A stretch of DNA of 64,000 nt from Methanothrix sp. (GTDB lineage Archaea > Halobacteriota > Methanosarcinia > Methanotrichales > Methanotrichaceae), in assembly GCA_963682135.1 (NCBI GenBank), contig OY821645.1, positions 1,280,001 through 1,344,000 on the forward strand, written 5' to 3'. The notes below the pieces were generated by a model, which saw nothing but the letters and a program-made list of their open reading frames with translations, was not told the DNA's origin and ran no database searches. Made by a program: the position numbers and the translations under genes. This document shows positions 3,209-49,960 of this stretch, piece after piece (within the stretch, counting starts at the first letter, position 1; each line of letters starts with the position of its first letter).

Positions 3209-5251
3209 TCATGCTTTCAAGAACCTCCGGACATGTCCGAAGGGACTGTACTCCACTCCACCGCCATGATTGCTGTAGAACTTCGTGAACATCTCCACAT
3301 AATGCAACCTGAGAGGATGCATGAAGGGAGAGAGAATTCCCAGCAGGAAGTTGATGAAGTGAACTGCCAATAATACCACAAGACCCGCAATGATCGCAGG
3401 TATTGTGAACTCAGCGCTATCAGTTGCTCCACCACTCAGCATGGGCATGACTACATAGAAGGCCAACTGGTTGGCAGCGAATGCCAAGCCTACTGAAGCA
3501 AGGCCAATAGCTAATAACCTGAGATAGGATATCAGATTGCTCACATAGAATGGCAAGTGAGCAAGACCCATAGGCCCTTCCGGTCCCATTACCAGCATCA
3601 CCATGGCGACTAAAATTACGACAGCACTTGCGATTACCAACATCATCTGACCTATGACGAGTCCAAGTACAAGCAACCCAAAGAATACTTGGATGAGCAT
3701 CACAGGAAGTTTCTCGAAATAAGCATGCTTCTTCTCGCCGTAGGCAAGCTCCGTCTTGATACCCAAGATAGAACCGACGCTGCAGTGAATAATGCCTATG
3801 ATGACACTAGTACCGATCAACAACAAAACAGCGTTGCTTGCCAGCCGGTCCATGGGGAAAATATCAATTCCCGGCCAAAATCCGATCCTTCCCAGCGAGC
3901 CAAAAACACCTTCACCGAAATAGAGACCTGCCGCCTTTACAGCCTCGAGCTCATGTTCAGGCAATTGTCCCATGACCTTGCCCCACAAACCGAGCGGGCC
4001 AAAGATCTCGCCGAAGAATATACCGAATATGATAGCCCACACGCTGGAAATCAGAACTACGTTGATCAGCTGCTGCCAGCCAGGAGTCTTGAACTTCTTC
4101 TTGAGAAGCACCATAGTCAGAAGCGACATGACGCCATAGCCGATATCACCCAGAATCATGCCAAACATGATTGGGAAGAATACGAATATCAGCAATGACG
4201 GATCGAACTCCTTATACTCGGGAATGGCGAACATCCTTGTTACCAGTTCGTAAGGCTTGACCAAGCTGGGATTATCCATCAGGGTCGGTATGTCTTCGCC
4301 CTTCTCTGCAAGTTCGTCTGTCTCTTTATCTGCGATCAACGAAACTTCAAGCCTGCCGCCGGCAGCACTCTCCAACTCGCTCTTGAGCCTGCTGAACTGA
4401 TCTGCTGGAACATACCCATCTATAACGAAGGCGTTATCCGTCTCAGCAAACCTGAGTGGTGCCTCTGTTTTGCGGGTCTCCATGGACAGGTACTCGTCCG
4501 TCGCCAGCATAAGATCTTCATACTGCTTCTTCATGTCGGACAGCTTCTTTTGGAGTGGCACTTTTTCGCCTTCCAGAGATTTAACGCTGCCTTCAAGAGT
4601 AGCAATAGCCGAGTCTACATTGCCCTCCAGCCTGGGTACAGACAATTCAGAAAACCCATGCTCAGAAAGGACTGAAGATACTTCGCCGGCCTTTTCTGCA
4701 GGCACAAATACCGCTACAAAAGTTGCATTCTTGGCACTTCCGGAATAAACCTCATTTACCGGAGATACCTTCGCTACATCGGCATCTACTGGAGTTTTTG
4801 TTGTGCCGACGAAGGTCGCCAGAGAATCATAACCATAATAAGCATCTAAAGGCAAAGGCAACACTGCCAATGGAGTCAGAGACTTGATCTGATCCTGTTT
4901 GGATTTTACTTCTGCGTCGATGGCAACGATGCGCTCGTATGTAGCAGTAACATCTGCACCGACGTTATTGAGAAGATTATCCAGCTCCGATAGAACCTGG
5001 CTCTCGGGATATGCCTTATCAGGAAACTTCTTATTTAATTCAAGATACCTGGTGACAGATCTGAGCTTAATGAGATCCTCGGAGTATTCTTTGGCTTTGC
5101 CGATGGGCTTGCCCATCTCAAACTGAGGTTGGTTGCCATTATAGTTGACAATATGGAGCAAGCGCAACTCATGCAGCTTTTCTACGACTGGAGATATTAC
5201 GTTCTTTGACCCGGCGACTACTACACGACTCATTTTCACGGGTCTAAGCAT
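3209..5251 (-). CDS. atpI: A1Ao ATP synthase subunit I (a)
   Basis: FGMILGDIGYG, ISYLRLLAIGLA, HPLRLHYVEMFTKFY. Confidence 0.96.
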   Translation of the reverse strand: MLRPVKMSRVVVAGSKNVISPVVEKLHELRLLHIVNYNGNQPQFEMGKPIGKAKEYSEDLIKLRSVTRYLELNKKFPDKAYPESQVLSELDNLLNNVGADVTATYERIVAIDAEVKSKQDQIKSLTPLAVLPLPLDAYYGYDSLATFVGTTKTPVDADVAKVSPVNEVYSGSAKNATFVAVFVPAEKAGEVSSVLSEHGFSELSVPRLEGNVDSAIATLEGSVKSLEGEKVPLQKKLSDMKKQYEDLMLATDEYLSMETRKTEAPLRFAETDNAFVIDGYVPADQFSRLKSELESAAGGRLEVSLIADKETDELAEKGEDIPTLMDNPSLVKPYELVTRMFAIPEYKEFDPSLLIFVFFPIMFGMILGDIGYGVMSLLTMVLLKKKFKTPGWQQLINVVLISSVWAIIFGIFFGEIFGPLGLWGKVMGQLPEHELEAVKAAGLYFGEGVFGSLGRIGFWPGIDIFPMDRLASNAVLLLIGTSVIIGIIHCSVGSILGIKTELAYGEKKHAYFEKLPVMLIQVFFGLLVLGLVIGQMMLVIASAVVILVAMVMLVMGPEGPMGLAHLPFYVSNLISYLRLLAIGLASVGLAFAANQLAFYVVMPMLSGGATDSAEFTIPAIIAGLVVLLAVHFINFLLGILSPFMHPLRLHYVEMFTKFYSNHGGGVEYSPFGHVRRFLKA

Positions 5252-5570
5252 GTAACAACCCCATAAACTCCTTTATCAAATATTCAACAGCTTTGTCCAG
5301 CTTTGCGTTGGCGCTGCCGCTCATTGAGTTTACGTTCTTCTCACCGCTGCTAACGATCGATGCCTTCTTGACTTTCACATCGCTCTCAGCTTTGGCAACG
5401 CTCTTGTTATAGTAATCCTGTGCATCAGTCTCGGCGGATTTGACGAGGTTTGCAGCTTCAGTAGTGGCAGCGGCTATCCTTTTTCCCTTTTCATCCAAGG
5501 CTCGCTGGACTGCTGCCTTGGCTTCAGCCTCTGCCGATTTAATTTTCGATAAGATATCGTCTCTAGCCAT
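5244..5570 (-). CDS. atpH: A1Ao ATP synthase subunit H
   Basis: 108 aa Ala/Lys-rich coiled coil, first gene of the operon, overlaps atpI. Confidence 0.88.
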   Translation of the reverse strand: MARDDILSKIKSAEAEAKAAVQRALDEKGKRIAAATTEAANLVKSAETDAQDYYNKSVAKAESDVKVKKASIVSSGEKNVNSMSGSANAKLDKAVEYLIKEFMGLLHA

Positions 5571-5672
5571 CTGATCCCTCTACTTCTTCCCTCACTACAC
5601 CTCTTCCGTTTTTCAAACAGCGCTACATCACTTTTGGCTCGTGATAAACGTTCAGATCCATCCTCATCTACC

Positions 5673-5692
5673 AATATAAACTCTTCGGTTTT
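5673..5692 (-). promoter_or_regulatory. Probable BRE/TATA promoter of the atp operon
   Basis: Minus strand reads AAAACCGAAGAG-TTTATATT about 105 nt upstream of atpH. Confidence 0.5.
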
Positions 5693-5726
5693 GATTTGAG
5701 GAGAGGGCCAAGTATGAGCTTTCGCC

Positions 5727-6890
5727 TTATGATCCCCAAAATTTCAAGGCTGTTTCCAGCTCTTTGTGGTCTTTTGCGTATTCTTTTAAGGGAATTTGCA
5801 TTCTCCAGGCCTCCGCCGCCTGCACCATAGCTCTTGCACCGGCCACAGTTCCGTCAGGATGGCCGTGCACCCCTCCACCTGCTTGGACGATGCAATCAAT
5901 GCCGTAGCCATCGAGGTTTCCATGAACTTTAGCAGGATAGACCCCGCCCGAGGCAACCGGGAAGACTCTCTTGTAGCCGTGCCAATCCTCTCGCAGAGCA
6001 TCACGGGAGAAGTCGTTTTCCAGGGTTTCGCGCGCCATCTTGCCCATGTAGCTTCCAGTATGCAAGTTAGTGCCGCCCGTCATGCGCACCAGCTTGGAGA
6101 TGACCAGCATGGAAATGCCATGTCCTTTATCACGAGTGAAGGCTGCATGCATCGTTCTGTGTACGTGTATGGGGACACTAAGGTGAGTTGAGAGAATCTC
6201 CAGAGCAGAAAAGCCGCTCGTCAGGACATCTATCATGACCATATTGGCGCCATGATCAACTGCCTGCTCCGCACGCTCCAGGATTTTATCTGGGCCGACG
6301 GTGACATTCACCGCATAGAAAGCTTTCTTGCCCGTCTGCGTCTCCACCTTGTCGAGAGCCGCCATGACCGCCTCAAGGCGGGGGATGAGCGGGCAGAAGC
6401 TCTGATCAGTCAGAGTCTCATCATCCTTGACCAGATCCAGCCCACCGCGAACGGCTGCTGCCGCCACCTCTGCTGTACCGGACGGGTCCAGACCGACCTT
6501 GGGCTTGACGATGGTGCCAATCAATGGACGGTCGTAAACTCCTAATATTTTTCGCGCATCTTCAATGCCAAAGCGAGGACCCTTATGCGCACAGAGCAGG
6601 CTCTCCGGGAAGATTACATCCTGCAGGCGCACCTTCTTCAAGTCGCCCAGACCGAAGAGATTTCCTGCCACCACAGAAAGGTACTGGGGGATGTTTCCCG
6701 GCTCAAATAGCTCCTCGGGAAAGCCTATCTCCACATTGTTGCCCTCCGCCAGGATCACCCTGGCCGCGAGAGAGTTGTCCTGGCCGCGCACCGCGGTCCA
6801 GGTGCCGGTGGACTGCTCGGCTGCAATAGCCTCCGCCGCCCTCCGGATGGGAAGGTCTGTTTCTACATGATATTTTGCAATAAGTTCCAT
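5727..6890 (-). CDS. rbcL: RuBisCO large subunit, archaeal form III
   Basis: [33 protein letters not shown], loop-6 [18 protein letters not shown] all present. Start at ATG 6890 (GGAG upstream); the ORF-track extension to 6980 is unlikely. Confidence 0.9.
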
Positions 6891-7235
6891 ATTACAGCTC
6901 CTGGGTGTTCTACGAAAGGCCAGACGGGCACCTCTGCCCTGGGATGACTGAAATCCCTCCTCAGAACAATATTGAGGCATAATTGGCCGATTCCGGTCAT
7001 AGATGATCTCTGACAGATATAAGATCTACGCAGCCGGGCAAGACTTTTGGCGGACGCCTCCCTTCCGCAAAATTAGTGGCATGGGCACTATTCGCTGGGC
7101 GAACGGAATATTTCTCTTTGGAAAAAATCCTGCAAACCGCAATTAGAAGATAAAAACAAATTATTTCGGTGCGGGGGGTAACAGTTTTATTATCGAAGAA
7201 ACCCTTTCAGACTGCTAAAAATATCAGGTGAATAT

Positions 7236-8174
7236 ATGGGTGAATGCATAAATGATGAAACTCGATATATCGTCGATCTGAGGCGCCACATGTGGATGGA
7301 TGGCATCGAGGTGGAATTGCGACGGCTCATCTGGCAGATTGCCGTTGTCGGGAAATACATTTCTGCAAAGATCCACGAATCCAACCGCAAGCTGGCCGGC
7401 TTCAAGAATGTTTATGACGAGGATCAGTTGGCACTGGACCGCATTTCCGACGACATATTGAAAAATATGCTGCACAACTCCGGATTTGTTCGCGAGTATG
7501 CCTCCGAGGAGCTCGAAGATATCGTAACCATCGGTCAGGGGGGGGAAAAATATATTGTTACCGCCGATCCAGTGGATGGTTCGTCTCTGGTGGATACTAA
7601 TCTGGCCATCGGAACGATCATCGGCATCCATAAAAATTCGATATTTGACAACGGCCACAATTCAATGGTCGCCGCTCTTTATATTACCTACGGCCCGCTC
7701 ATCACCATGATTTATTCGGCCGGAAAGGGCGTGCATGAGTTTGTATTGGATCGCGAAGGAGAGTATGTCCTGTCCGAGGAAAATATCCGGCTCAATGAGA
7801 AGGGGTCGATCTTTTCACCTGGTGGTCTGCGCAAGGACTGGACGGACAAACATCAGAATTACATCAATAAGCTGGAGGCAGACGGCTACAAGTTGCGCTA
7901 CAGCGGAGGTTTTGTTCCCGACATCAATCAGGTGATCATCAAGCGGGGAGGCGTATTCACGTATCCCGCACTGAAAAAATCTCCCCAGGGGAAGCTTCGC
8001 TTGCTGTTTGAACTTCAGCCTATGGCTTTCATTGTAGAGCAGGCCGGCGGCAGAGCAACGGACGGGAAAAATGATATTCTTTCCATTAAAGTGACATCCG
8101 TTAAACAACGGTCACCCATATACATTGGTTCGACCGCGGAAGTGACAATGGCGGGGGAATTTCTGTCGCAATAA
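7236..8174 (+). CDS. fbp: Fructose-1,6-bisphosphatase class I
   Basis: YASEE, ADPVDGSS, LRYSGGFVPD, GKLRLLFELQPMAFIVEQAGG. Confidence 0.93.
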   Translation: MGECINDETRYIVDLRRHMWMDGIEVELRRLIWQIAVVGKYISAKIHESNRKLAGFKNVYDEDQLALDRISDDILKNMLHNSGFVREYASEELEDIVTIGQGGEKYIVTADPVDGSSLVDTNLAIGTIIGIHKNSIFDNGHNSMVAALYITYGPLITMIYSAGKGVHEFVLDREGEYVLSEENIRLNEKGSIFSPGGLRKDWTDKHQNYINKLEADGYKLRYSGGFVPDINQVIIKRGGVFTYPALKKSPQGKLRLLFELQPMAFIVEQAGGRATDGKNDILSIKVTSVKQRSPIYIGSTAEVTMAGEFLSQ

Positions 8175-8194
8175 ATTCATTCAATGGGGCAGCA

Positions 8195-9589
8195 ATGATT
8201 TACGAGAATTATGATCTGCTAAAAAAAGGATGCGAATCAATACTCGCCTATGACGATGGTGATGTTCGTGTCTTGGATGAAGCCAGGTTTCAGGAAAAGC
8301 TGATCGATGATTTAATCTATACAGTCGTTTTCAGTCCCGACCCTGCGACTTCGGAAGCGGCGGGGTTTCTGATTCGCCGGAGTGCTGCAACGCTCGGGAT
8401 TATGTCTGCGTCGATCCAATCCCTTTACGAAGCAATTGGAAGGAAAGAGATCGGCGGATTTACTGTTCCGGCGATCAATATCCGCGGCATTACCTACCAT
8501 GTGGCGCAGGCAGTATTTCGTGCTGCAATAAAAGGGAATGTGGGACCTGTTCTTTTTGAGATAGCCCGTTCGGAAATAGGCTACACAAAACAAAAGCCGC
8601 TGGAATACACCTGTGCCGTGATGGCGGCGGCGATTAAATCCGGCTGGCGTGGCCCGATCTTTTTGCAGGGCGATCATTTTCAGATAAACGCCAAGAAGTT
8701 TGCAGCGGACGCAAAAAAGGAAACGCAGACCGTTAAGGATCTGATCCGGGAAGCTATCCAATCCGGTTTTTACAATATCGACATCGATACTTCCACACTG
8801 GTTGATCTGTCGCAGCCCACAGTCAAAGATCAGCAAAGAACGAACTTCACACTTGCTGCAGAGCTGACCGCTCTGATTCGTGATCTGGAGCCGGAAGGCA
8901 TCACTGTGTCCGTGGGTGGCGAAATCGGCGAGGTTGGCGGCAAGAACAGCACAGTCGATGAGCTGATGATTTTCATGGACGGTTATCTGGAAGAACTCAA
9001 GAAACGGGGCGAGGCTTTCAAAGGAATCAGCAAGATCAGCGTCCAAACCGGTACGACTCATGGGGGTGTGCCGCTTGCCGACGGAACGGTTGCAAAAGTC
9101 AAAATTGATTTTGACGTGTTAGAGAAACTTTCAGAGACATCCCGCGAGCAATACGGTTTGTCCGGAGCCGTTCAGCACGGCGCTTCAACGCTTCCCGATG
9201 AAGCATTTGATCGCTTTCCTGCCACCGCAACCGCAGAGATTCATCTGGCTACAGGCTTTCAGAACATGATCTATGACAACAAAGCTTTCCCGGCGGATCT
9301 GCGATCAAATATTTATGATCTTCTGTTAGCCGACATGAAAGGCGAATGGAAAGAAAAGGACACGCAGGAGCAGTTCATCTATAAAACCCGCAAAAAAGCC
9401 TTCGGACCGTTCAAGCGAGAACTGTGGCACCTGCCATCAGTTGTCCGCACCGAAATCTGCACTGAGCTGGAAAGGAAATTCGCCTTTTTATTTGACAAGC
9501 TCAAAGTAAACGGCACACGTCCTGTTCTGGATCAATTCATCAGGCGGGTTGATGTGCCGCAGAAAATGCCCGATGCGCTGAAAGGCTGA
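8195..9589 (+). CDS. fba: Class II fructose-bisphosphate aldolase (long type with N-terminal extension)
   Basis: VPAINIR, QGDHFQ, GGEIGEVG, GTTHGG, VQHGAST metal/substrate motifs. Confidence 0.85.
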   Translation: MIYENYDLLKKGCESILAYDDGDVRVLDEARFQEKLIDDLIYTVVFSPDPATSEAAGFLIRRSAATLGIMSASIQSLYEAIGRKEIGGFTVPAINIRGITYHVAQAVFRAAIKGNVGPVLFEIARSEIGYTKQKPLEYTCAVMAAAIKSGWRGPIFLQGDHFQINAKKFAADAKKETQTVKDLIREAIQSGFYNIDIDTSTLVDLSQPTVKDQQRTNFTLAAELTALIRDLEPEGITVSVGGEIGEVGGKNSTVDELMIFMDGYLEELKKRGEAFKGISKISVQTGTTHGGVPLADGTVAKVKIDFDVLEKLSETSREQYGLSGAVQHGASTLPDEAFDRFPATATAEIHLATGFQNMIYDNKAFPADLRSNIYDLLLADMKGEWKEKDTQEQFIYKTRKKAFGPFKRELWHLPSVVRTEICTELERKFAFLFDKLKVNGTRPVLDQFIRRVDVPQKMPDALKG

Positions 9590-9594
9590 AAGCA

Positions 9595-10710
9595 ATGACC
9601 AAGATCACAATCAGCTTAATAAAAGCCGATGTGGGCGGCTATCCCGGCCACTCCTCGGTCCATCCCGCATTGATTGAGACCGCAGAGTCGAAGCTTGCTC
9701 AGGCCAAGAAGTCCGGCGCACTGATAGACTTTAGGGTGCTTGCCTGCGGCGACGACCTGGAGCTTCTCATGAGCCACACGAAAGGCTGCGACAGCGGCGA
9801 AGTGCATGCTCTGGCCTGGGAGACCTTCGAGGAGGCCACTGAGGTCGCCAAGAAGCTCAAGCTCTACGGTGCGGGTCAAGATCTCTTGGCGGACGCCTTC
9901 TCCGGCAACATTCGCGGCATGGGTCCAGGCGTGGCGGAGATGGAGATAGAAGAGCGAACCAGCGAACCAATAGTCGCTTTCATGATGGACAAGACGGAGC
10001 CAGGGGCCTTCAATCTGCCCATCTTTAAGATGTTTGCCGATCCATTCAACACCGCCGGTCTGGTGATAGATCCTGCCTGCCATCATGGCTTCACCTTCGA
10101 GATCTGGGATATCATGGAGCACAAGAAGGTCTTCATGGACTGTCCGGACGAGATGTACGATCTTCTGGCCCTCATCGGCGCCAAGAGCCGCTATGTGATT
10201 AAGAGAGTATTTTGTAAGCCCAACAGCAAGATCTCCGAGCAGGAGGCTGTGGCGGTAGTGAGCACAGAGAAGCTCTACCAGACGGCAGGAACATACGTTG
10301 GCAAGGATGACCCCGTGGCCCTGGTGCGCTGCCAGTCCGGGCTGCCCGCTCTGGGCGAGGTACTGGAGCCCTTCGCCCTGGGACACCTGGTCTCGGGATG
10401 GATGCGCGGCAGCCACAACGGCCCCCTCATGCCCTGCTCCTTTGAGACGGCGCACCCCACCAGATTTGACGGCCCGCCCCGCGTCATTGCCGCCGGCTTC
10501 CAGATGGCTTACGGAAACTTCATGGGTCCCGTCGATCTCTTCAAGGATGTGGCCTTCGACCGGGTTCGGCAGAAGTGCCTGGAGATTACTGACTACATGA
10601 GGGCGCACGGCCCCTTCGAGCCGGGAAGGCTGCCCATGGAAGATATGGAATACACCACTCTGCCCCACGTCATGAAGCTGCTGGCGGACAGGTTTGTGAA
10701 GGCGGAGTAG
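9595..10710 (+). CDS. Bifunctional FBP aldolase/phosphatase (class V FBPase)
   Basis: IKADVGGYPGH, YGAGQDLL, DKTEPGAFN, YVGKDDP, GWMRGSH, MEYTTLP. Confidence 0.96.
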   Translation: MTKITISLIKADVGGYPGHSSVHPALIETAESKLAQAKKSGALIDFRVLACGDDLELLMSHTKGCDSGEVHALAWETFEEATEVAKKLKLYGAGQDLLADAFSGNIRGMGPGVAEMEIEERTSEPIVAFMMDKTEPGAFNLPIFKMFADPFNTAGLVIDPACHHGFTFEIWDIMEHKKVFMDCPDEMYDLLALIGAKSRYVIKRVFCKPNSKISEQEAVAVVSTEKLYQTAGTYVGKDDPVALVRCQSGLPALGEVLEPFALGHLVSGWMRGSHNGPLMPCSFETAHPTRFDGPPRVIAAGFQMAYGNFMGPVDLFKDVAFDRVRQKCLEITDYMRAHGPFEPGRLPMEDMEYTTLPHVMKLLADRFVKAE

Positions 10711-10774
10711 GCGCTTCGCTAGTTTGGAATCCAACACGGATAAGAAAGTGATTGTTGCAAGAGTGGATAATTAG

Positions 10775-11254
10775 ATGCTAGAGAGCCAGGTCGCTGAAGA
10801 GATAAAAGAAGCTGAGGCCACCCCTGCAAAGCCAAAATCGCGCCGCCGCCTCAAGGTGGCCCATCCTGAACGCTGCATCGGCTGCGATAGCTGCATGTTT
10901 GCCTGCAGCCGCACGCGCACAGGCACCGTCTCCCTGCAAAACAGCGCCATCAAGGTGCAGACGCAGGGCGGAATTGAAGGCGATTTCCGTGTGATCGTCT
11001 GCCGGGCCTGTCAGGATCCGCCCTGTGCCCGAGCCTGCCCCACGGGCGCTATGGAGAAGAGGCCAAACGGCAGTGTAGTCTTTCACAAAGATCGCTGCAT
11101 CGGCTGCGGCAGCTGCGAAAAGGCCTGCCTGGTGGGGGCAGTAACCCTGAACAAGGATAAGAAGCCCATCAAATGCATTCACTGTGGAGCCTGCGTAGAC
11201 TTCTGTCCGCATGGCGTGCTCCAGTTGGAGGAGATCCCAGCCTCGGGAGGATGA
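10775..11254 (+). CDS. 4Fe-4S polyferredoxin, small subunit of the oxidoreductase
   Basis: Four Cys clusters: CIGCDSC..C, CRACQDPPC..CP, CIGCGSC..C, CIHCGAC..CP. Confidence 0.9.
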   Translation: MLESQVAEEIKEAEATPAKPKSRRRLKVAHPERCIGCDSCMFACSRTRTGTVSLQNSAIKVQTQGGIEGDFRVIVCRACQDPPCARACPTGAMEKRPNGSVVFHKDRCIGCGSCEKACLVGAVTLNKDKKPIKCIHCGACVDFCPHGVLQLEEIPASGG

Positions 11255-11255
11255 A

Positions 11256-12992
11256 ATGCTGCGAAAAGTTCTGTATATCGATCTTTCCAAAGGAGAATCA
11301 TGGGTTGAAGAGAAGCAGGAACTCTTCGAGAACTGGATGGGCGGGACGGGCGTGGGAATTCGGCTCCTCCAGGAGGAGTGCCCCCCAGGCACAGATCCTC
11401 TCTCGCCCCAGGCGCCCATAATCCTCTCCATTGGTCCCCTCAACGGCATATTTCCCGTGGCCACCAAGACGGTAGCCACCTTCAAATCCCCGCTTACAGG
11501 TGAATTGGGCGAATCTTATGCAGGAGGTAGGCTCTCTTTAGCCTTGAGGTTTGCCGGGCATGAGGCCGTGGTCATCCGCGGCCAGGCAGAGAAGCCTTCT
11601 TACATATCCATTAACGATTCAATCGTATTGATCAAAGACGCCACATCGATTTGGGGCATAGATGCTCAGACCTCGGGCGTGATCCTACGCGATCGCGAAC
11701 CGGGTGTGGGCAAAAGAAGCATCATTCGTATCGGCCCGGCGGGCGAGACTGGAGTAAGATATGCGGGTGTGGTAGTGGACACCTACCGCCACTTCGGGCG
11801 ACTGGGCCTTGGCGCCGTTTTCGGCTCCAAGAGACTCAAGGCCATGGTGATCTCGGGAACGGAGACAATCGATGTTCCTGATATCAAACGCTACAAAGAG
11901 ATCTACAACAGGCTCTACAAGATCACAGTGCAGACGGATGTCATGGAGAAGTACCATGATATCGGAACTTCCGTAAACATTAAAACCTTGAATTGGCTCA
12001 AGGGTCTGCCCACCAAAAATTTCCTTCTCTCCAGCTTTGCAGAAGGCGAAAAGATCAGCGGGGAAGCCTTCGCAGATAATCAGCTCATTCGCAGGCTCTC
12101 TTGCGCCGGCTGCCCCATCGGCTGTGTGCATATCGCCGCTATGAAGACGGCCTTTTCCAAACATCACGAATTCGAGGTAAGAAAGGTCTCCTATGATTAC
12201 GAGCCCATCTACTCCCTGGGCTCGAACCTGGGTGTGGACCAGGCGGAAGGAGTGTTGCAGCTCATAGATGTCTGTGAGAGGTTGGGCCTGGATGTCATGT
12301 CGGCGGGAGTGGTCCTCTCCTGGGCCACCGAGGCTCTGGAAAAGGGATTGATCACGAGCAAAGAGACCCAGGACGTTTTGCTACAGTGGAACAACGTGGA
12401 AGGCTACACAAGAGCTTTAGAGAACATAGTCAAGGCTCCCAATGAGTTCTACGCCGCACTTGCACGAGGAGCGGATTATGCTGCGCAAAAGTATGGCGGC
12501 ACCGAGTATGCCATGACTCTAGGAGGAAACGAGGTCTCAGGCTACCATACCGGCCCTGCTTCCATCGTAGGCCAGCTGGTGGGCGTGCGCCACTCTCATT
12601 TGGATAACGCCGGGTATGCCGTCGACCAGAAGGCGATCAAAAAGCACATGGATGCAGAGGTGATGGTCGATGAGATCATCAAGGAGGACAATTCCCGCGG
12701 CGTCTTCAACTCCCTGGTGGGCTGTTTGTTCGCCCGGGGAGTTTACACGGAAGAGAACATCATCGACTCATTGGGAGCGGTGGGCATAGTCAAGACAAAG
12801 GAAGATCTGCAAGAGCTGGGCCAAAGGATCTTTGAGGAAAAGTATAAATTCAAGGTGCAGGAGGGCTTCGATCTCTCCCGCGCCAGCATTCCCAAAAGGT
12901 TCTATGAGACCGTCTCTGCTGCGGGATTGGTGGCACCCGAGACGGTGGAAGAGATGCTCAAGATCTATCGAAAGAAGAGAGGTTGGAGCTAA
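11256..12992 (+). CDS. Tungsten/molybdopterin aldehyde:ferredoxin oxidoreductase family protein (possibly GOR-like)
   Basis: KSPLTG, GRLGLGAVFGSKRLKA, CAGCPIGC, DYEP, GLDVMSAG. Start MLRKVLYIDLS 1 nt after the ferredoxin stop. Confidence 0.9.
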   Translation: MLRKVLYIDLSKGESWVEEKQELFENWMGGTGVGIRLLQEECPPGTDPLSPQAPIILSIGPLNGIFPVATKTVATFKSPLTGELGESYAGGRLSLALRFAGHEAVVIRGQAEKPSYISINDSIVLIKDATSIWGIDAQTSGVILRDREPGVGKRSIIRIGPAGETGVRYAGVVVDTYRHFGRLGLGAVFGSKRLKAMVISGTETIDVPDIKRYKEIYNRLYKITVQTDVMEKYHDIGTSVNIKTLNWLKGLPTKNFLLSSFAEGEKISGEAFADNQLIRRLSCAGCPIGCVHIAAMKTAFSKHHEFEVRKVSYDYEPIYSLGSNLGVDQAEGVLQLIDVCERLGLDVMSAGVVLSWATEALEKGLITSKETQDVLLQWNNVEGYTRALENIVKAPNEFYAALARGADYAAQKYGGTEYAMTLGGNEVSGYHTGPASIVGQLVGVRHSHLDNAGYAVDQKAIKKHMDAEVMVDEIIKEDNSRGVFNSLVGCLFARGVYTEENIIDSLGAVGIVKTKEDLQELGQRIFEEKYKFKVQEGFDLSRASIPKRFYETVSAAGLVAPETVEEMLKIYRKKRGWS

Positions 12993-13025: not shown

Positions 13026-13697
13026 CTACTTTGCCACTTCTTTTTCAGGCCGGGGTTTTGCTCCGTTCCTCTTTTTAGGGGAAGGCCTCACTCTTGCGGC
13101 AGAATTCTTCTCCACCTTCTTCCCTTCCAGGACATTTTCCACCTGGTCAGTCCCGAGATCCCGGATCATGCCCCTTCTGGCCATCCTATCCTTGATCATC
13201 CTCCGGACCTCATCTCCTCCCACAGAGAAGACCTCCCCGAGCAACTCCACGGCCACATCCAGCTCCCGGCCCACCTGCGGGTCTCCGGACGCACACCGGC
13301 CAGCCAGATCGCTAAGATGATCCAGGGGCTTATCTACCAGCTGTGAGGAGTATTTGTCAGGCTCTTCCCGGTAGATTTTGAGCATGCCGAAGATGTAAGG
13401 ATAGAGGGGCGTCTCGGGACTGATCCGGTAGAAGGTGTTGGTCTTCTTCTTGGCCTCATCACGAGGCGAGGGCAGTATTCGCCGCTCCATGGAGACGACC
13501 CCCAGGCGCTCCAGCTTGTCCAGTTTGTTCATGAGAGTGGTCTGGTTCCAGAAGGGGCCGCCCCCAGTGGGTCCATTATCCCGCCAGATCTGATTAAGCT
13601 GTACGTACCCGCCCTTTCGCTTAAGGTAAATCAGGAGAGAAGCCAGAGGAGCTTGATCGCGCTGCAGAGCGGAATAACGGATAAACTCATCCAACAT
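13026..13697 (-). CDS. Hypothetical protein with a winged-helix-like domain and basic C-terminal tail
   Basis: TTLMNKLDKLERLGVVSMERR...NTFYRIS resembles a wHTH recognition helix and wing. Confidence 0.6.
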   Translation of the reverse strand: MLDEFIRYSALQRDQAPLASLLIYLKRKGGYVQLNQIWRDNGPTGGGPFWNQTTLMNKLDKLERLGVVSMERRILPSPRDEAKKKTNTFYRISPETPLYPYIFGMLKIYREEPDKYSSQLVDKPLDHLSDLAGRCASGDPQVGRELDVAVELLGEVFSVGGDEVRRMIKDRMARRGMIRDLGTDQVENVLEGKKVEKNSAARVRPSPKKRNGAKPRPEKEVAK

Positions 13698-47267: not shown

Positions 47268-48755
47268 TTAGTCCCTACCTTTCCAAATCCTGATGATAAG
47301 TGCAATCCCTGCCAGGTTTATGGCCAGGATGAGTATGATCCCGATTATTCTCTTCCAATCACTCTTCGGCGCAGCCTTGCCGGCCAGATCCATCGCTACA
47401 TCTCCGTTCACCAGCACGGCCCACTCCCTGCCTCCGGCCATAAGGCTGTACTGCCCGCGCTCCAGGCCCCGGAAGCAGCAGTCCCCCGCCGCAGCGGCGT
47501 CCGCCAGATGCGCCCCATCCCGCCAGAGCGCGAGGCCCACGGGCGCGCCTGTCACGCGCAGCTCGTAGCTGTCTGCGACGGGCAGGCTACGGCCATTGCC
47601 GGAGAGGTTGCCGGAGATATTGAGCAGATCCATAACCGTTGGCGCGACATCGGTCTCAGACCAGCGGCCGCCCAGGTTCAGCTCCTCCACTCCCGGCCCC
47701 AGGAAGACCAAGGGCACGCGCAGCGCCTCCGGCCTGGCCGCATATTTATCAGCAGAGTGCCCGCCCTTGCCTGTCTCTGAAGGAAAGACCATGCCGTGAT
47801 CGGCGGTGACGGCTAGCAGCACGTTGCTTTTGCGGCAGATCTCGGCCAGCCGGCCCAGGGGCGCATCCAGAGCGGTGACCACTTCGCGATAGCTGTCCGC
47901 TCCCAGGTTCTGCCCGGCACTGTCCACCGCGCCCACATTCACCAGCATGAGAAAATGCTGGCCAGAAAGGTTCTGAACGGTGTCCGCTGCGGCGTCCAGA
48001 GCCCAGGCATCATAGCCGGCATAGCCTGCGGCGCCCTGCGGCGCAGAATACCGGGCAAACCTGTCCCGCCAGGCCTGAAATCGGTACCGGAGGCCCGTCG
48101 GCACGCCGGCCCGAAAGCCGGGAATAGGCTCGGCCCCGTGCAGGGAGTTGTCACCCAGATAGAGAACGCCGTCCATCTCCCGCAATACAGGCATGCTGTC
48201 TCCCCGCTCCAGAACGGCCAGACAGAGGTAGCCCTCAGCGTGCGCGAGGTCGAAGATGGTAGTCCCGAGTCGGTCGGGATTGGTTCCTGAGTTGCCGGTG
48301 ATGAGAATGCTATGGCTCTTGGTGGTCTCGGGCACGGGCACCCGCACGTCCACCGCCCGTGCCCCGCCGCCGGTCAGATTGAAGAGCACAGCCCCATTGA
48401 TGGGCGAGCCGTCCAGGGCGTAGGCGCGATGCTCCGGATAGACGTAAGACGCACCCAGCCCGTCCACTACCAGAATGACAGCTCCGCTGGGCTGGGCCAC
48501 GGGCCCCACCTGCACATCGATGGCACCGACTATGCTGGAAATTATGAATAATAATAATAGTATAGATGATAATAACAACGTAGTTGGCCTGCCTACTCTG
48601 TGCCTCTGTGTCTCTGTGGTTGGTTTTTGTATGCTATGGCTATCATCATCCCAGACAGCTTCAACAAAACCACAGAGGCACAGAGACACAGAGAACGAAA
48701 AAAGACTACCAGCATGCGATAATTTCGTCATCAAAAAAAGAAAAAGACGAATCAT
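47268..48755 (-). CDS. Membrane-anchored alkaline-phosphatase-superfamily metalloenzyme (start uncertain)
   Basis: LVVDGLG, PETTKSH, VDSAG, TADHG, GGH, DVAPT; hydrophobic N-terminal segment and C-terminal TM anchor. Confidence 0.78.
   Translation of the reverse strand: MIRLFLFLMTKLSHAGSLFSFSVSLCLCGFVEAVWDDDSHSIQKPTTETQRHRVGRPTTLLLSSILLLLFIISSIVGAIDVQVGPVAQPSGAVILVVDGLGASYVYPEHRAYALDGSPINGAVLFNLTGGGARAVDVRVPVPETTKSHSILITGNSGTNPDRLGTTIFDLAHAEGYLCLAVLERGDSMPVLREMDGVLYLGDNSLHGAEPIPGFRAGVPTGLRYRFQAWRDRFARYSAPQGAAGYAGYDAWALDAAADTVQNLSGQHFLMLVNVGAVDSAGQNLGADSYREVVTALDAPLGRLAEICRKSNVLLAVTADHGMVFPSETGKGGHSADKYAARPEALRVPLVFLGPGVEELNLGGRWSETDVAPTVMDLLNISGNLSGNGRSLPVADSYELRVTGAPVGLALWRDGAHLADAAAAGDCCFRGLERGQYSLMAGGREWAVLVNGDVAMDLAGKAAPKSDWKRIIGIILILAINLAGIALIIRIWKGRD
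48596..48693. repeat. ~98-bp palindromic (REP/MITE-like) element, copy 2
   Basis: ctctgtgcctctgtgtctctgtggtt - 46 nt - aaccacagaggcacagagacacagag. Confidence 0.85.
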
Positions 48756-48772: not shown

Positions 48773-49960
48773 CTAGAAGTCCGTCATGACCCGGTACTGG
48801 TCGATCTCGGTCTGCTTGAGACCCGTCAGGAACTGCTCGGCCATGTCGCGAATATCCCTGGAACGGGTGATAGCTCGGCCCACCACCAGGATGTTCGCGC
48901 CTGCCGCCAGAGCCGCGCCCTCGGTATCCACCCGAATGCCGCCGGCGACTGCCACCAGCAGCCTGCGCCCTTCTTTGGCAAGAGCCTTGATCTCGCCGAT
49001 GTTGCTCCAGGCGTGCGCGCTCTTCTCCATGTCTATTGCCCGGTGCAGCTCGACCACATCCGGCAGAACTTCGAGGCCCTTCAGAACAACCAGAGGATCA
49101 GGCACATTGAGCATATCGATGATGCTATAGATGCCGGTCTTCCTGGCCTCCCGGATGGACAGTTCGATCGTCTTCTTGGGAGCAAGGCCCGATATGACCA
49201 CCGCGTCCGCCGCGGCGTCTGCTGCCAGACGCACCTCCAGGTTTCCGGTATCCAGAGTCTTCAGATCCAGAATGATAAAGGCACCCGGCCTTATGGCGCG
49301 AATTTCCTTGACAACACTCATGCCCAGCATTTTGACCAAAGGCGTTCCCACCTCGATGAGAATGTGATCGCTCTCCGGCAGAGCGGCGAGCACGCGGCGC
49401 ACCTCAGCCAGGTCCACCAGATCAAAGGCCACCTGCAAGTATGGCGGATCCCACAGCCGTGTGACACGGAATCCCATGATGGGATGAGTGGAGCGATCCT
49501 TCTCGTAAAGCATCAGATTTACATCCGGGAATCCAGCCATAGCCCTCTCCAGGGCCAGCTTGGTTGCCCCGTAGTTGTAGCGATAGATAGCATCGTAGTC
49601 TTTTGCCTGGGGATGAATAAACACGGATACGATTATCAGCAGCTCTTCGGCCTTATCCTTGGGAATTATGCCTTCAGCTACCGCATCCGCCACTGCTTTG
49701 GAGACGGCCATCTGGGCCGGCCCGAATATCTGGGCGGCTTGATCCATATTCTTCACGGTAACTTTGGGAACGATAAGAGTGGACGGCTTGGGCGGCAGAT
49801 TGGGCCGAATAACACCTAAGACGGGCGTATGCCCTGCCGAAAGCTGCGTGAGGCCAGAGGCAAATGCCGTGGCCACCGGTCCCTCCTTATCTCCAATTAT
49901 CAGATCGATATGTGCAATCTCAGGCTCTTTTCCTATGAGAGCCTCTCCGACTAAAAACAA
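48773..49960 (-). CDS. fae-hps: Bifunctional formaldehyde-activating enzyme / 3-hexulose-6-phosphate synthase
   Basis: GEALIG..EIAHIDL, PKVT, FGPAQ, then LQVAFD, EVGTPL, DLKTLDTG, ELHRAID. Confidence 0.95.
   Translation of the reverse strand: MFLVGEALIGKEPEIAHIDLIIGDKEGPVATAFASGLTQLSAGHTPVLGVIRPNLPPKPSTLIVPKVTVKNMDQAAQIFGPAQMAVSKAVADAVAEGIIPKDKAEELLIIVSVFIHPQAKDYDAIYRYNYGATKLALERAMAGFPDVNLMLYEKDRSTHPIMGFRVTRLWDPPYLQVAFDLVDLAEVRRVLAALPESDHILIEVGTPLVKMLGMSVVKEIRAIRPGAFIILDLKTLDTGNLEVRLAADAAADAVVISGLAPKKTIELSIREARKTGIYSIIDMLNVPDPLVVLKGLEVLPDVVELHRAIDMEKSAHAWSNIGEIKALAKEGRRLLVAVAGGIRVDTEGAALAAGANILVVGRAITRSRDIRDMAEQFLTGLKQTEIDQYRVMTDF

Follow-up and report, generated by a model that had tools for sequence, protein, structure and literature searches.

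A six-gene locus of the archaeon Methanothrix sp., located at positions 5727-12992 of a 64,000-nt window (the whole stretch of DNA analysed here, part of a 3,043,341-bp single-contig genome), places rbcL, the gene for the large subunit of ribulose bisphosphate carboxylase/oxygenase (RuBisCO), divergently beside five co-oriented genes of sugar-phosphate and ferredoxin-linked enzyme families. Gene order and phylogeny indicate that this locus is a mosaic of three evolutionary units: a backbone of rbcL and a fructose-1,6-bisphosphate (FBP) aldolase/phosphatase (FBPAP), a class II pair of the WOR family, WorS-WorL, and a cassette of bacterial origin. As the best explanation, to which we assign a probability of roughly 45%, these units would together form a composite triose-phosphate-to-hexose-phosphate module, with the WOR pair coupling ferredoxin to the interconversion of glyceraldehyde-3-phosphate (GAP) and 3-phosphoglycerate (3-PG). 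The old Methanothrix backbone consists of rbcL, upstream of an ATPase operon, divergent from FBPAP across an intergenic region with a conserved TATA-like box. WorS-WorL, downstream of FBPAP, would most likely connect the ferredoxin pool to the GAP/3-PG pair, and a cassette from Syntrophales-like bacteria, comprising a class-1 fructose-1,6-bisphosphatase (FBPase) and an aldolase-like protein, was inserted immediately upstream of FBPAP. The WOR would sit between 3-PG, coming from RuBisCO (through the PRK-dependent reductive hexulose-phosphate (RHP) pathway or AMP salvage) or from gluconeogenesis starting at acetyl-CoA, and the GAP and dihydroxyacetone phosphate consumed by FBPAP. Gene identities, the mosaic history, the origin of the cassette and the recurrence of WOR genes beside sugar-phosphate genes are shown here; the substrate of the WOR, the direction of its reaction, co-transcription of the genes and any flux from RuBisCO through the operon are what we infer in this scheme.

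An earlier interpretation made from the letters alone (the sequence-only reading) had proposed a RuBisCO linked to a ferredoxin-driven CO2-fixation module, and overall it is partly supported. Its six genes were confirmed by open reading frames (ORFs) and family scans, with spacers of 345, 20, 5, 64 and 1 nt, the first measured from the rbcL methionine at 6890. On the minus strand lies rbcL (5727-6890; 387 aa, form III-type, PF00016 and PF02788), followed across the divergent intergenic region (6891-7235) by five plus-strand genes: the first cassette gene, FBPase (7236-8174; PF00316, PF18913); the second, a 464-aa class-II aldolase-superfamily protein (8195-9589; PF01116); FBPAP (9595-10710; PF01950, 606.8 bits, and NF041126, 576.2 bits against a cut-off of 520); a WorS-like four-cluster polyferredoxin, the class II WOR small subunit (10775-11254; Fer4 families and Cys motifs); and WorL, the AOR/WOR-family pterin oxidoreductase large subunit (11256-12992; PF02730, PF01314).

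WorL scores 220.2 bits against PF02730 and 223.3 bits against PF01314, and no AFOR_N match other than WorL was found in the genome. Its start at 11256 is the position from which both its orthologues and the Pyrococcus furiosus AOR (1AOR) align. The latter is also its best match in the PDB (1aor, 274.4 bits, full length), other matches being FOR (1b25, 191 bits) and WOR5 (6x6u, 138 bits). The possibility that WorL is an archaeal GAPOR was ruled out by its score against the GAPOR equivalog NF040818, which was 27.1 against a cut-off of 1300 and covered only the N-terminal 115 residues. WorL keeps the residues aligned to T243, E313, Y427 and H448, which belong to a published list of second-shell catalytic residues of WORs (PMC12096430), as well as a CxxCxxxC motif. 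The small subunit matches multiple Fer4 families, the best NCBIfam model being NF007382 (YdhY-like ferredoxin-like protein, 74.3 bits), and its translation contains four CxxCxxCxxxC-type motifs for [4Fe-4S] clusters. By eye, the first Cys motif follows immediately on an SRRRLK stretch, and a hydrophobic segment is missing. Genes of WorN or WorABC type were absent among the neighbours scanned. These features fit the published architecture of a class II WOR, in which a WorS with four [4Fe-4S] clusters is joined to a WorL (PMC13328260); according to that paper, this class holds approximately 40 clades, only two of which have a known role.

Among characterised members, the pair resembles CbGOR, a class II WOR of Caldicellulosiruptor bescii reported to have GAP-oxidising activity (PMC13328260, PMC12096430). 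CbGOR has the same pattern of a large pterin subunit (WorL) and a small subunit (WorS) with four [4Fe-4S] clusters, is ferredoxin-linked and cytoplasmic, and all four second-shell residues, as stated for the GOR clade in the same two papers, are kept in WorL here too. Archaeal GAPOR of Pyrococcus and Methanococcus likewise belongs to the AOR/WOR superfamily and carries out the GAP/3-PG step with ferredoxin, but it is monomeric and lacks a WorS, and it is described as keeping two of the four second-shell residues (PMC12096430), whereas WorL here has all four. The two-gene architecture is also common to P. furiosus WOR5/ASOR and E. coli YdhY-YdhV. The present pair differs from both in that no Tat or membrane signal is evident by eye in WorS, in that the closest solved relative of WorL is P. 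furiosus AOR, and in its gene context.

We examined the genomic context of this pair in other archaea. WorL orthologues (45-73% identity) occur widely across the phylum and stand clearly apart from paralogues at 36% or less; among the 60 genomes fetched, 57 have WorS directly upstream of the WorL orthologue. The order FBPAP-WorS-WorL occurs in other genera of Methanotrichaceae (L193 and L194) and in another family (L195, with a 13-nt gap), while a third family has FBPAP, triose-phosphate isomerase (TIM), WorS and WorL in succession, separated by 31, 32 and 18 nt (L212). The order recurs in L197 and L213, where WorS is preceded by a spacer of 1.5-2.2 kb that in L197 is occupied by an ArsA-like ATPase gene, and two genera of a fourth family have PRK-WorS-WorL (L205 and L232). 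In L193, WorL is followed by a PfkB-family kinase and a DeoC/LacD class I aldolase (7131-9004, minus strand), a pair that in the present genome is found at G000:C1:875974-877859. A triose- or sugar-phosphate gene lies within 2.5 kb of WorS-WorL in 15 of the 60 loci, compared with only 2-3 loci that have a match in the larger outer flanks. This gene order is recurrent. Because WorS-WorL is strung together with FBPAP, with FBPAP and TIM, or with PRK in four families, the idea that the WOR serves the 3-PG/GAP step gains independent support. The sequence-only reading had suggested that an AOR-family enzyme could interconvert these two compounds, which is a reasonable hypothesis because the conversion of 3-PG to GAP alone joins the output of PRK and RuBisCO to the input of TIM and FBPAP. 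The operon-like gene order in other families and the precedent of CbGOR speak for that suggestion; on the other side, the enzyme is not a GAPOR, and phosphoglycerate kinase (PGK) and a GAPDH-like protein could carry out the step by the classical route.

The first two plus-strand genes have a different history. FBPase matches PF00316 (117.8 bits) and PF18913 (143 bits) and falls below the cut-off of NF006783 (354.3 against 521). Homologues of the cassette at 80-91% identity lie on contigs of 4.8-5.2 Mb and bear the labels Syntrophales, Syntrophaceae, Smithellaceae or Smithella. Of 80 metagenome loci recovered with a bacterial homologue, 51 have a close FBPase just upstream of the aldolase-like gene, and Methanothrix markers were seen in only 8 of the 80; four long loci (L082, L092, L097 and L105) carry hallmark bacterial neighbours, namely FtsK, RimO, a sigma-54 activator, MutS, GGDEF and NifUS. 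All 31 FBPase copies in Methanothrix context form one clade (SH-aLRT 99), and the 29 Methanothrix-context copies of the aldolase-like gene, together with three short contigs, also form one clade (SH-aLRT 99) that is nested within bacterial-context clades. The GC content of the cassette is 0.48-0.49, compared with 0.53-0.58 around it, and its ribosome-binding stretch is common to the closest bacterial loci. Tree topology, composition and neighbours together indicate that the cassette was acquired once from Syntrophales-like bacteria. Its presence, mapped on the rbcL tree for 47 scored loci, requires at least 11 changes, at least 5 of which are forced by well-supported branches, which argues for repeated loss or exchange; the cassette is dispensable. 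In the window it ends 5 nt before the FBPAP ATG, and because it was inserted so closely it is probably co-transcribed with FBPAP. With a near-identical cassette in Syntrophales-like bacteria, the locus offers a clean example of genes that passed recently from bacteria into a methanogen.

The aldolase-like protein matches PF01116 (60.4 bits, cut-off 25.5) and lies well below the equivalogs for FBP aldolase (FBA), with 37.7 against 343.05 for TIGR01859 and 49.5 against 215.6 for the cbbA/FBA model. Across 32 sequences, residues D160, H161, E243, H289 and H328 do not vary, nor do the motifs DH, EIGxxGG, THGG and QHG, and they align to metal and catalytic positions of KbaY and SqiA. A single-sequence phmmer search of the PDB recovered only GatZ (E 0.002), so that profile and fold searches were needed. 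For its AF2 model (pLDDT 93.1) the nearest folds are GatZ (2fiq, Z 33.0), tagatose 4-epimerase (9kcs, Z 31.9) and UxaE (6il9, Z 30.1), with class II FBA and tagatose-bisphosphate aldolase (TBA) ranking lower (Z 24-28). The modelled fold would suit either an aldolase or a C4-epimerase. The strict pairing with FBPase suggests that the substrate may be a ketose phosphate or bisphosphate. There is a superficial likeness to bacterial cbb operons, where RuBisCO also stands beside a class-1 FBPase (cbbF) and a class-II aldolase-family gene (cbbA), but in the Syntrophales-like bacteria from which the cassette derives its surroundings are unrelated to autotrophy and hold no RuBisCO, the nearest folds of its second protein are GatZ, UxaE and tagatose 4-epimerase, and no transketolase N-domain was matched in this genome. 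A full Calvin cycle was rejected on the last of these grounds.

The other side of the divergent region is occupied by a bona fide RuBisCO, judged by its catalytic motifs. The sequence-only reading had called it a form III enzyme with intact motifs, and KPK, KDDE, HVHR, the LHTGS..GK loop, VASGG and GGG are indeed identical to those of the form III structure 6hun in alignment. We take these to be the carbamylated-lysine motif (KDDE), the KPK and HxHR motifs, the loop-6 lysine and the SGG and GGG phosphate sites. The protein scores above the cut-offs of PF00016 (252.6 bits) and PF02788 (72.9 bits), and its best PDB matches are form III enzymes (6hun at 291.5 bits, 2cwx and 3a13). It scores 386.6 bits against the curated type III equivalog TIGR03326, below the cut-off of 497.45, and is approximately 40-55 residues shorter than the solved form III chains. 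By its co-occurrence with an archaeal PRK it falls within type III-a as delimited by Kono et al. (PMC5241800). No further RuBisCO copy was found in the genome, so rbcL is the sole copy, and it is 74-93% identical to rbcL of metagenome-assembled genomes titled Methanothrix or Methanotrichaceae. The reading frame is open as far as 6980, and the 30-codon extension past 6890 is out of frame in relatives; coding of 6891-6980 was ruled out on this basis, and the start is most likely at 6890. Within the intergenic region, the GATATAAG box (7016-7023) is invariant in all 11 aligned loci, whether the cassette is present or absent, and it may represent an archaeal TATA-like element.

Conservation of the locus was followed in 57 Methanotrichaceae-type rbcL loci of 63 fetched, the other 6 being excluded as other lineages or a fragment. 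Where the sequence extends 4.2 kb or more upstream of rbcL (42 loci), FBPAP is present in 39 and the cassette in 21; where it extends at least 9 kb (36 loci), the counts are 33 for FBPAP, 28 for AOR and 19 for the cassette. The rbcL gene is directly divergent from FBPAP in 20 loci, and FBPAP is missing at three (L059 and L060, with 74% rbcL identity, and L068). The linkage of FBPAP to rbcL is widely kept in the family, that of the cassette is not, and inserts precede the ferredoxin gene in 10 of 35 loci. FBPAP and the ferredoxin gene stand no more than 431 nt apart in 24 of the 35, and the long spacers contain familyless ORFs, an AAA_15/AAA_21 ATPase or a peptidase-like gene; this junction looks like an insertion hot spot. 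A co-oriented ORF of 295-311 aa with no Pfam family stands between FBPAP and the ferredoxin gene in several relatives (L019:5384-6271, L021:7815-8711, L018:4739-5674 and L046:5031-5933, all on the minus strand) and is absent from the window. One further relative carries there an AAA_15/AAA_21 ATPase, of the family of abortive-infection or OLD-type systems (L022:4625-6097, minus strand). In another, FBPase, the aldolase-like gene, FBPAP, the ferredoxin gene and AOR are all inverted together with respect to rbcL (L065:3822-9751). Loci of rbcL outside the Methanotrichaceae had no neighbour in common with this cluster.

The enzymes that would supply and draw on this module were sought elsewhere in the genome. 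The sequence-only reading had held that a genome without PRK would confine RuBisCO to AMP salvage. A PRK is encoded approximately 641 kb from rbcL (L001:1450-2421; PF00485 147.8 bits, NF005655 305.7 against 236, best PDB match 5b3f with E 4.7e-66), and that objection falls away. Genes for Phi, PGK, GAPDH and transketolase had been named by the same reading as well. PGK is present (397.9 bits), as is TIM; the best Phi candidate found is a 413-aa tandem-SIS protein (L003:826-2067, plus strand) that scores 101.2 against the TIGR03127 cut-off of 160; GAPDH is represented by divergent proteins only, and a transketolase N-domain gave no match. The Fae-Hps fusion noted earlier in the window, a step of the RHP and ribulose monophosphate pathways approximately 36 kb from the cluster, is confirmed at 48773-49960 on the minus strand (NF009833 623.3 against 274, with both PF08714 and PF00215 matching). 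A second Hps (L006:1507-2769, plus strand) forms a fusion with an RraA-like aldolase domain (NF005442 at 698.4, cut-off 593).

The GAPDH step is anomalous throughout the family. The Pfam GAPDH C-domain PF02800 had no match in this genome; in a 301-genome sample of the phylum it matched 287 genomes and none of the nine Methanotrichaceae (this genome and eight others, all at least 99% complete). The five genomes from outside the family that also lack it are 61-91% complete (287 of 292 matched). Two highly divergent GAPDH-II-like paralogues that are 62% identical to each other lie outside the window (L079:1390-2538, minus strand, and L080:1072-2226, plus strand); with scores of 100.9 and 94.3 they stay below the cut-off of 185, but they keep the catalytic motif SCNTT. 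Their N-terminal glycine motif is altered, and they may be GAPDH with a changed cofactor. That no recognisable GAPDH C-domain occurs in the family raises the question by which route the reduction in gluconeogenesis and in the RHP pathway proceeds.

A more specific form of the proposal, which we regard as distinctly unlikely as it stands, would make WorS-WorL a ferredoxin-dependent, anabolic 3-phosphoglycerate reductase that converts 3-PG to GAP and bypasses PGK and GAPDH. Reduced ferredoxin could come, for example, from carbon monoxide dehydrogenase/acetyl-CoA synthase, one ATP would be saved per triose, and TIM and the irreversible FBPAP encoded alongside would draw the conversion forward. 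The reductive direction is favoured because the gene partners of the WOR are anabolic. Energetically, the oxidative GAPOR reaction is given as approximately -26 kJ/mol in a review table (PMC12525153), so 3-PG reduction would need ferredoxin to be very reduced and the ratio of 3-PG to GAP to be high, and it appears plausible only if pulled by FBPAP.

Several observations weigh against a ferredoxin-linked triose-phosphate module, and many of them also speak for a reading in which the genes are neighbours by descent only. On that account, which is unlikely but credible, RuBisCO would act in AMP or nucleotide salvage, or in the RHP pathway through PGK and the GAPDH-like protein, FBPAP in ordinary gluconeogenesis from acetate, and WorSL as a general aldehyde-detoxifying or acid-handling enzyme, with the cassette as a redundant passenger. 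A non-autotrophic salvage role for RuBisCO is possible because AMP phosphorylase (743.3 against a cut-off of 535) and ribose-1,5-bisphosphate (R15P) isomerase (430.1 against 314.1) are both present. Nor does the WOR appear to be needed for the 3-PG/GAP step, since PGK is accompanied by a GAPDH-like protein with SCNTT, found at 60% identity or more in all 29 Methanotrichaceae genomes and outside the family only as weak partial matches. Among solved structures, WorL comes closest to the broad-spectrum AOR of P. furiosus. CbGOR is bacterial and glycolytic and belongs to another named clade, whereas the partners here are gluconeogenic or RHP genes. Five co-oriented genes had been taken as one conserved module, and this did not hold, the cassette being confined to half of the 42 loci and having disappeared on at least 5 to 11 occasions. 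In the 10 relatives with inserts, unrelated genes spanning 0.9-2.8 kb separate FBPAP from the ferredoxin gene; rbcL is tied at least as faithfully to ATPase genes as to FBPAP, with AtpH adjoining it in 51 of 57 loci; and the unrelated flanking genes GlmU and DegT are equally conserved, so that conserved order in a young genus is weak functional evidence. In the wider survey, 45 of the 60 genomes have no sugar-phosphate neighbour of WorSL, and such neighbours are absent from all genomes examined of two families (f2, 10 of 10; f13, 7 of 7) and of a sister genus (g2, 6 of 6). The glycerol-3-phosphate dehydrogenase neighbour in seven genomes of the fourth family is convergent or approximately 1.3 kb away, not operonic, and the non-independence of related genomes makes the link look stronger in the neighbour counts than it is. 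Descent alone, however, does not readily account for the operon-tight FBPAP-(TIM)-WorS-WorL and PRK-WorS-WorL orders across four families at 45-68% WorL identity, nor for the clustering of sugar-phosphate matches within 2.5 kb of the pair instead of over the flanks.

Two further alternatives accept a catabolic or different substrate role for the WOR. All characterised GAPOR and GOR enzymes run oxidatively, in glycolysis only, as PMC12525153 and PMC13328260 describe them, which counts against a reductive enzyme here and would agree with WorSL as an oxidative GAPOR analogue, converting GAP to 3-PG and reducing ferredoxin. It could then serve glycogen breakdown, or generate low-potential ferredoxin at the expense of ATP in a cycle with PGK and the GAPDH-like protein. 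Methanothrix is cited as storing glycogen (PMC12525153), GAPOR has been reported as an alternative ferredoxin reducer in Methanococcus (PMC3585446), and the PfkB and class I aldolase genes after WorL in L193, a pair also encoded elsewhere in this genome, would suit that direction. We nevertheless consider it improbable, as the tightest partners of WorSL are anabolic (FBPAP and PRK) and better fit the reductive direction. FBPAP is a unidirectional gluconeogenic enzyme. It is more improbable still that WorSL acts on another aldehyde of the pathway, whether glyceraldehyde, glycolaldehyde, acetaldehyde or the formaldehyde that Hps sets free in the RHP cycle. A role linked to formaldehyde would also agree with PRK and rbcL as neighbours, the PDB relatives of WorL include FOR, and the four second-shell residues are those of aldehyde oxidation in general, but the partnership with TIM and FBPAP points to triose phosphates, and formaldehyde is already handled by Fae-Hps.

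The RHP pathway of methanogens, PRK activity and the expression of its genes in Methanothrix are already published: the pathway has been described by Kono et al. 2017 (PMC5241800), Yang et al. 2019 (PMC6411985) and Zhou et al. 2023 (PMC10470525), and in these papers the PRK of Methanosaeta concilii is reported as active in assays and RHP genes as transcribed in Methanothrix. PRK, form III-type RuBisCO, PGK, TIM, FBPAP and Hps or Fae-Hps are all encoded in the present genome. The published scheme draws the reduction step through 1,3-bisphosphoglycerate; here, by comparison, Phi is represented by the sub-cut-off tandem-SIS protein and GAPDH by the divergent family-specific form only. In the available portions of the three papers we found no mention of an operon, gene cluster, aldolase or aldehyde ferredoxin, and their supplementary tables may name GAPDH, aldolase or FBPase genes. 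In the literature covered more broadly, mostly as titles and abstract openings, the anatomy of the cluster, the WOR linkage, the bacterial origin of the cassette and the GAPDH anomaly were not found described, nor was a paper proposing this WOR for Methanothrix. The cluster-level account and the proposed WOR link therefore appear to be new.

Methanothrix is among Earth's most important methane producers and lives at the thermodynamic edge, where an ATP-saving, ferredoxin-linked step would matter energetically. If WorS-WorL were a 3-PG reductase, carbon reduction in the RuBisCO/RHP pathway and in gluconeogenesis would be partly ferredoxin-driven, both in Methanothrix and in families with FBPAP-TIM-WorSL or PRK-WorSL operons, and such an enzyme might accompany the loss of canonical GAPDH in the Methanotrichaceae. 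The recurrent gene order also yields a concrete substrate hypothesis for one more WOR clade, widespread in methanogens and their relatives.

Transcript data were drawn from assembled RNA contigs (Logan), in which depth cannot rank genes, DNA carry-over is possible and uncovered stretches carry no information; two runs of unknown kind (X7 and X8) were set aside in this reading. Two wetland metatranscriptomes (X1 and X2) cover all six genes with short, low-depth contigs, one of which bridges FBPase and the aldolase-like gene and another FBPAP and WorS, offering weak evidence of joint transcripts. A bacterial-type promoter and terminator scan gave 3 sites resembling promoters, where 5.9 would be expected, and 11 resembling terminators, where 8.2 would be expected, which is uninformative for an archaeon, and an Rfam scan of the whole window matched no RNA family.

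Directly downstream of rbcL on the same strand are the genes for A-type ATP synthase subunits H and I (3209-5570, minus strand; TIGR02926 50.2 against a cut-off of 48.5, NF004430 591 bits). Over the spacer between the rbcL stop and the AtpH start (5571-5726, and approximately 5588-5881), a run of unknown kind (X7) yields contigs with word depths above 10,000 and small indels, and Rfam matched nothing in that spacer; the contigs may reflect an abundant leader or RNA from a relative. At the far end of the cluster, a 223-aa ORF without a Pfam or NCBIfam family (13026-13697, minus strand) is kept beside the AOR gene across Methanothrix relatives. Finally, a 495-aa gene of the metalloenzyme/alkaline-phosphatase superfamily (47268-48755, minus strand) follows fae-hps in the same orientation after a spacer of 17 nt.

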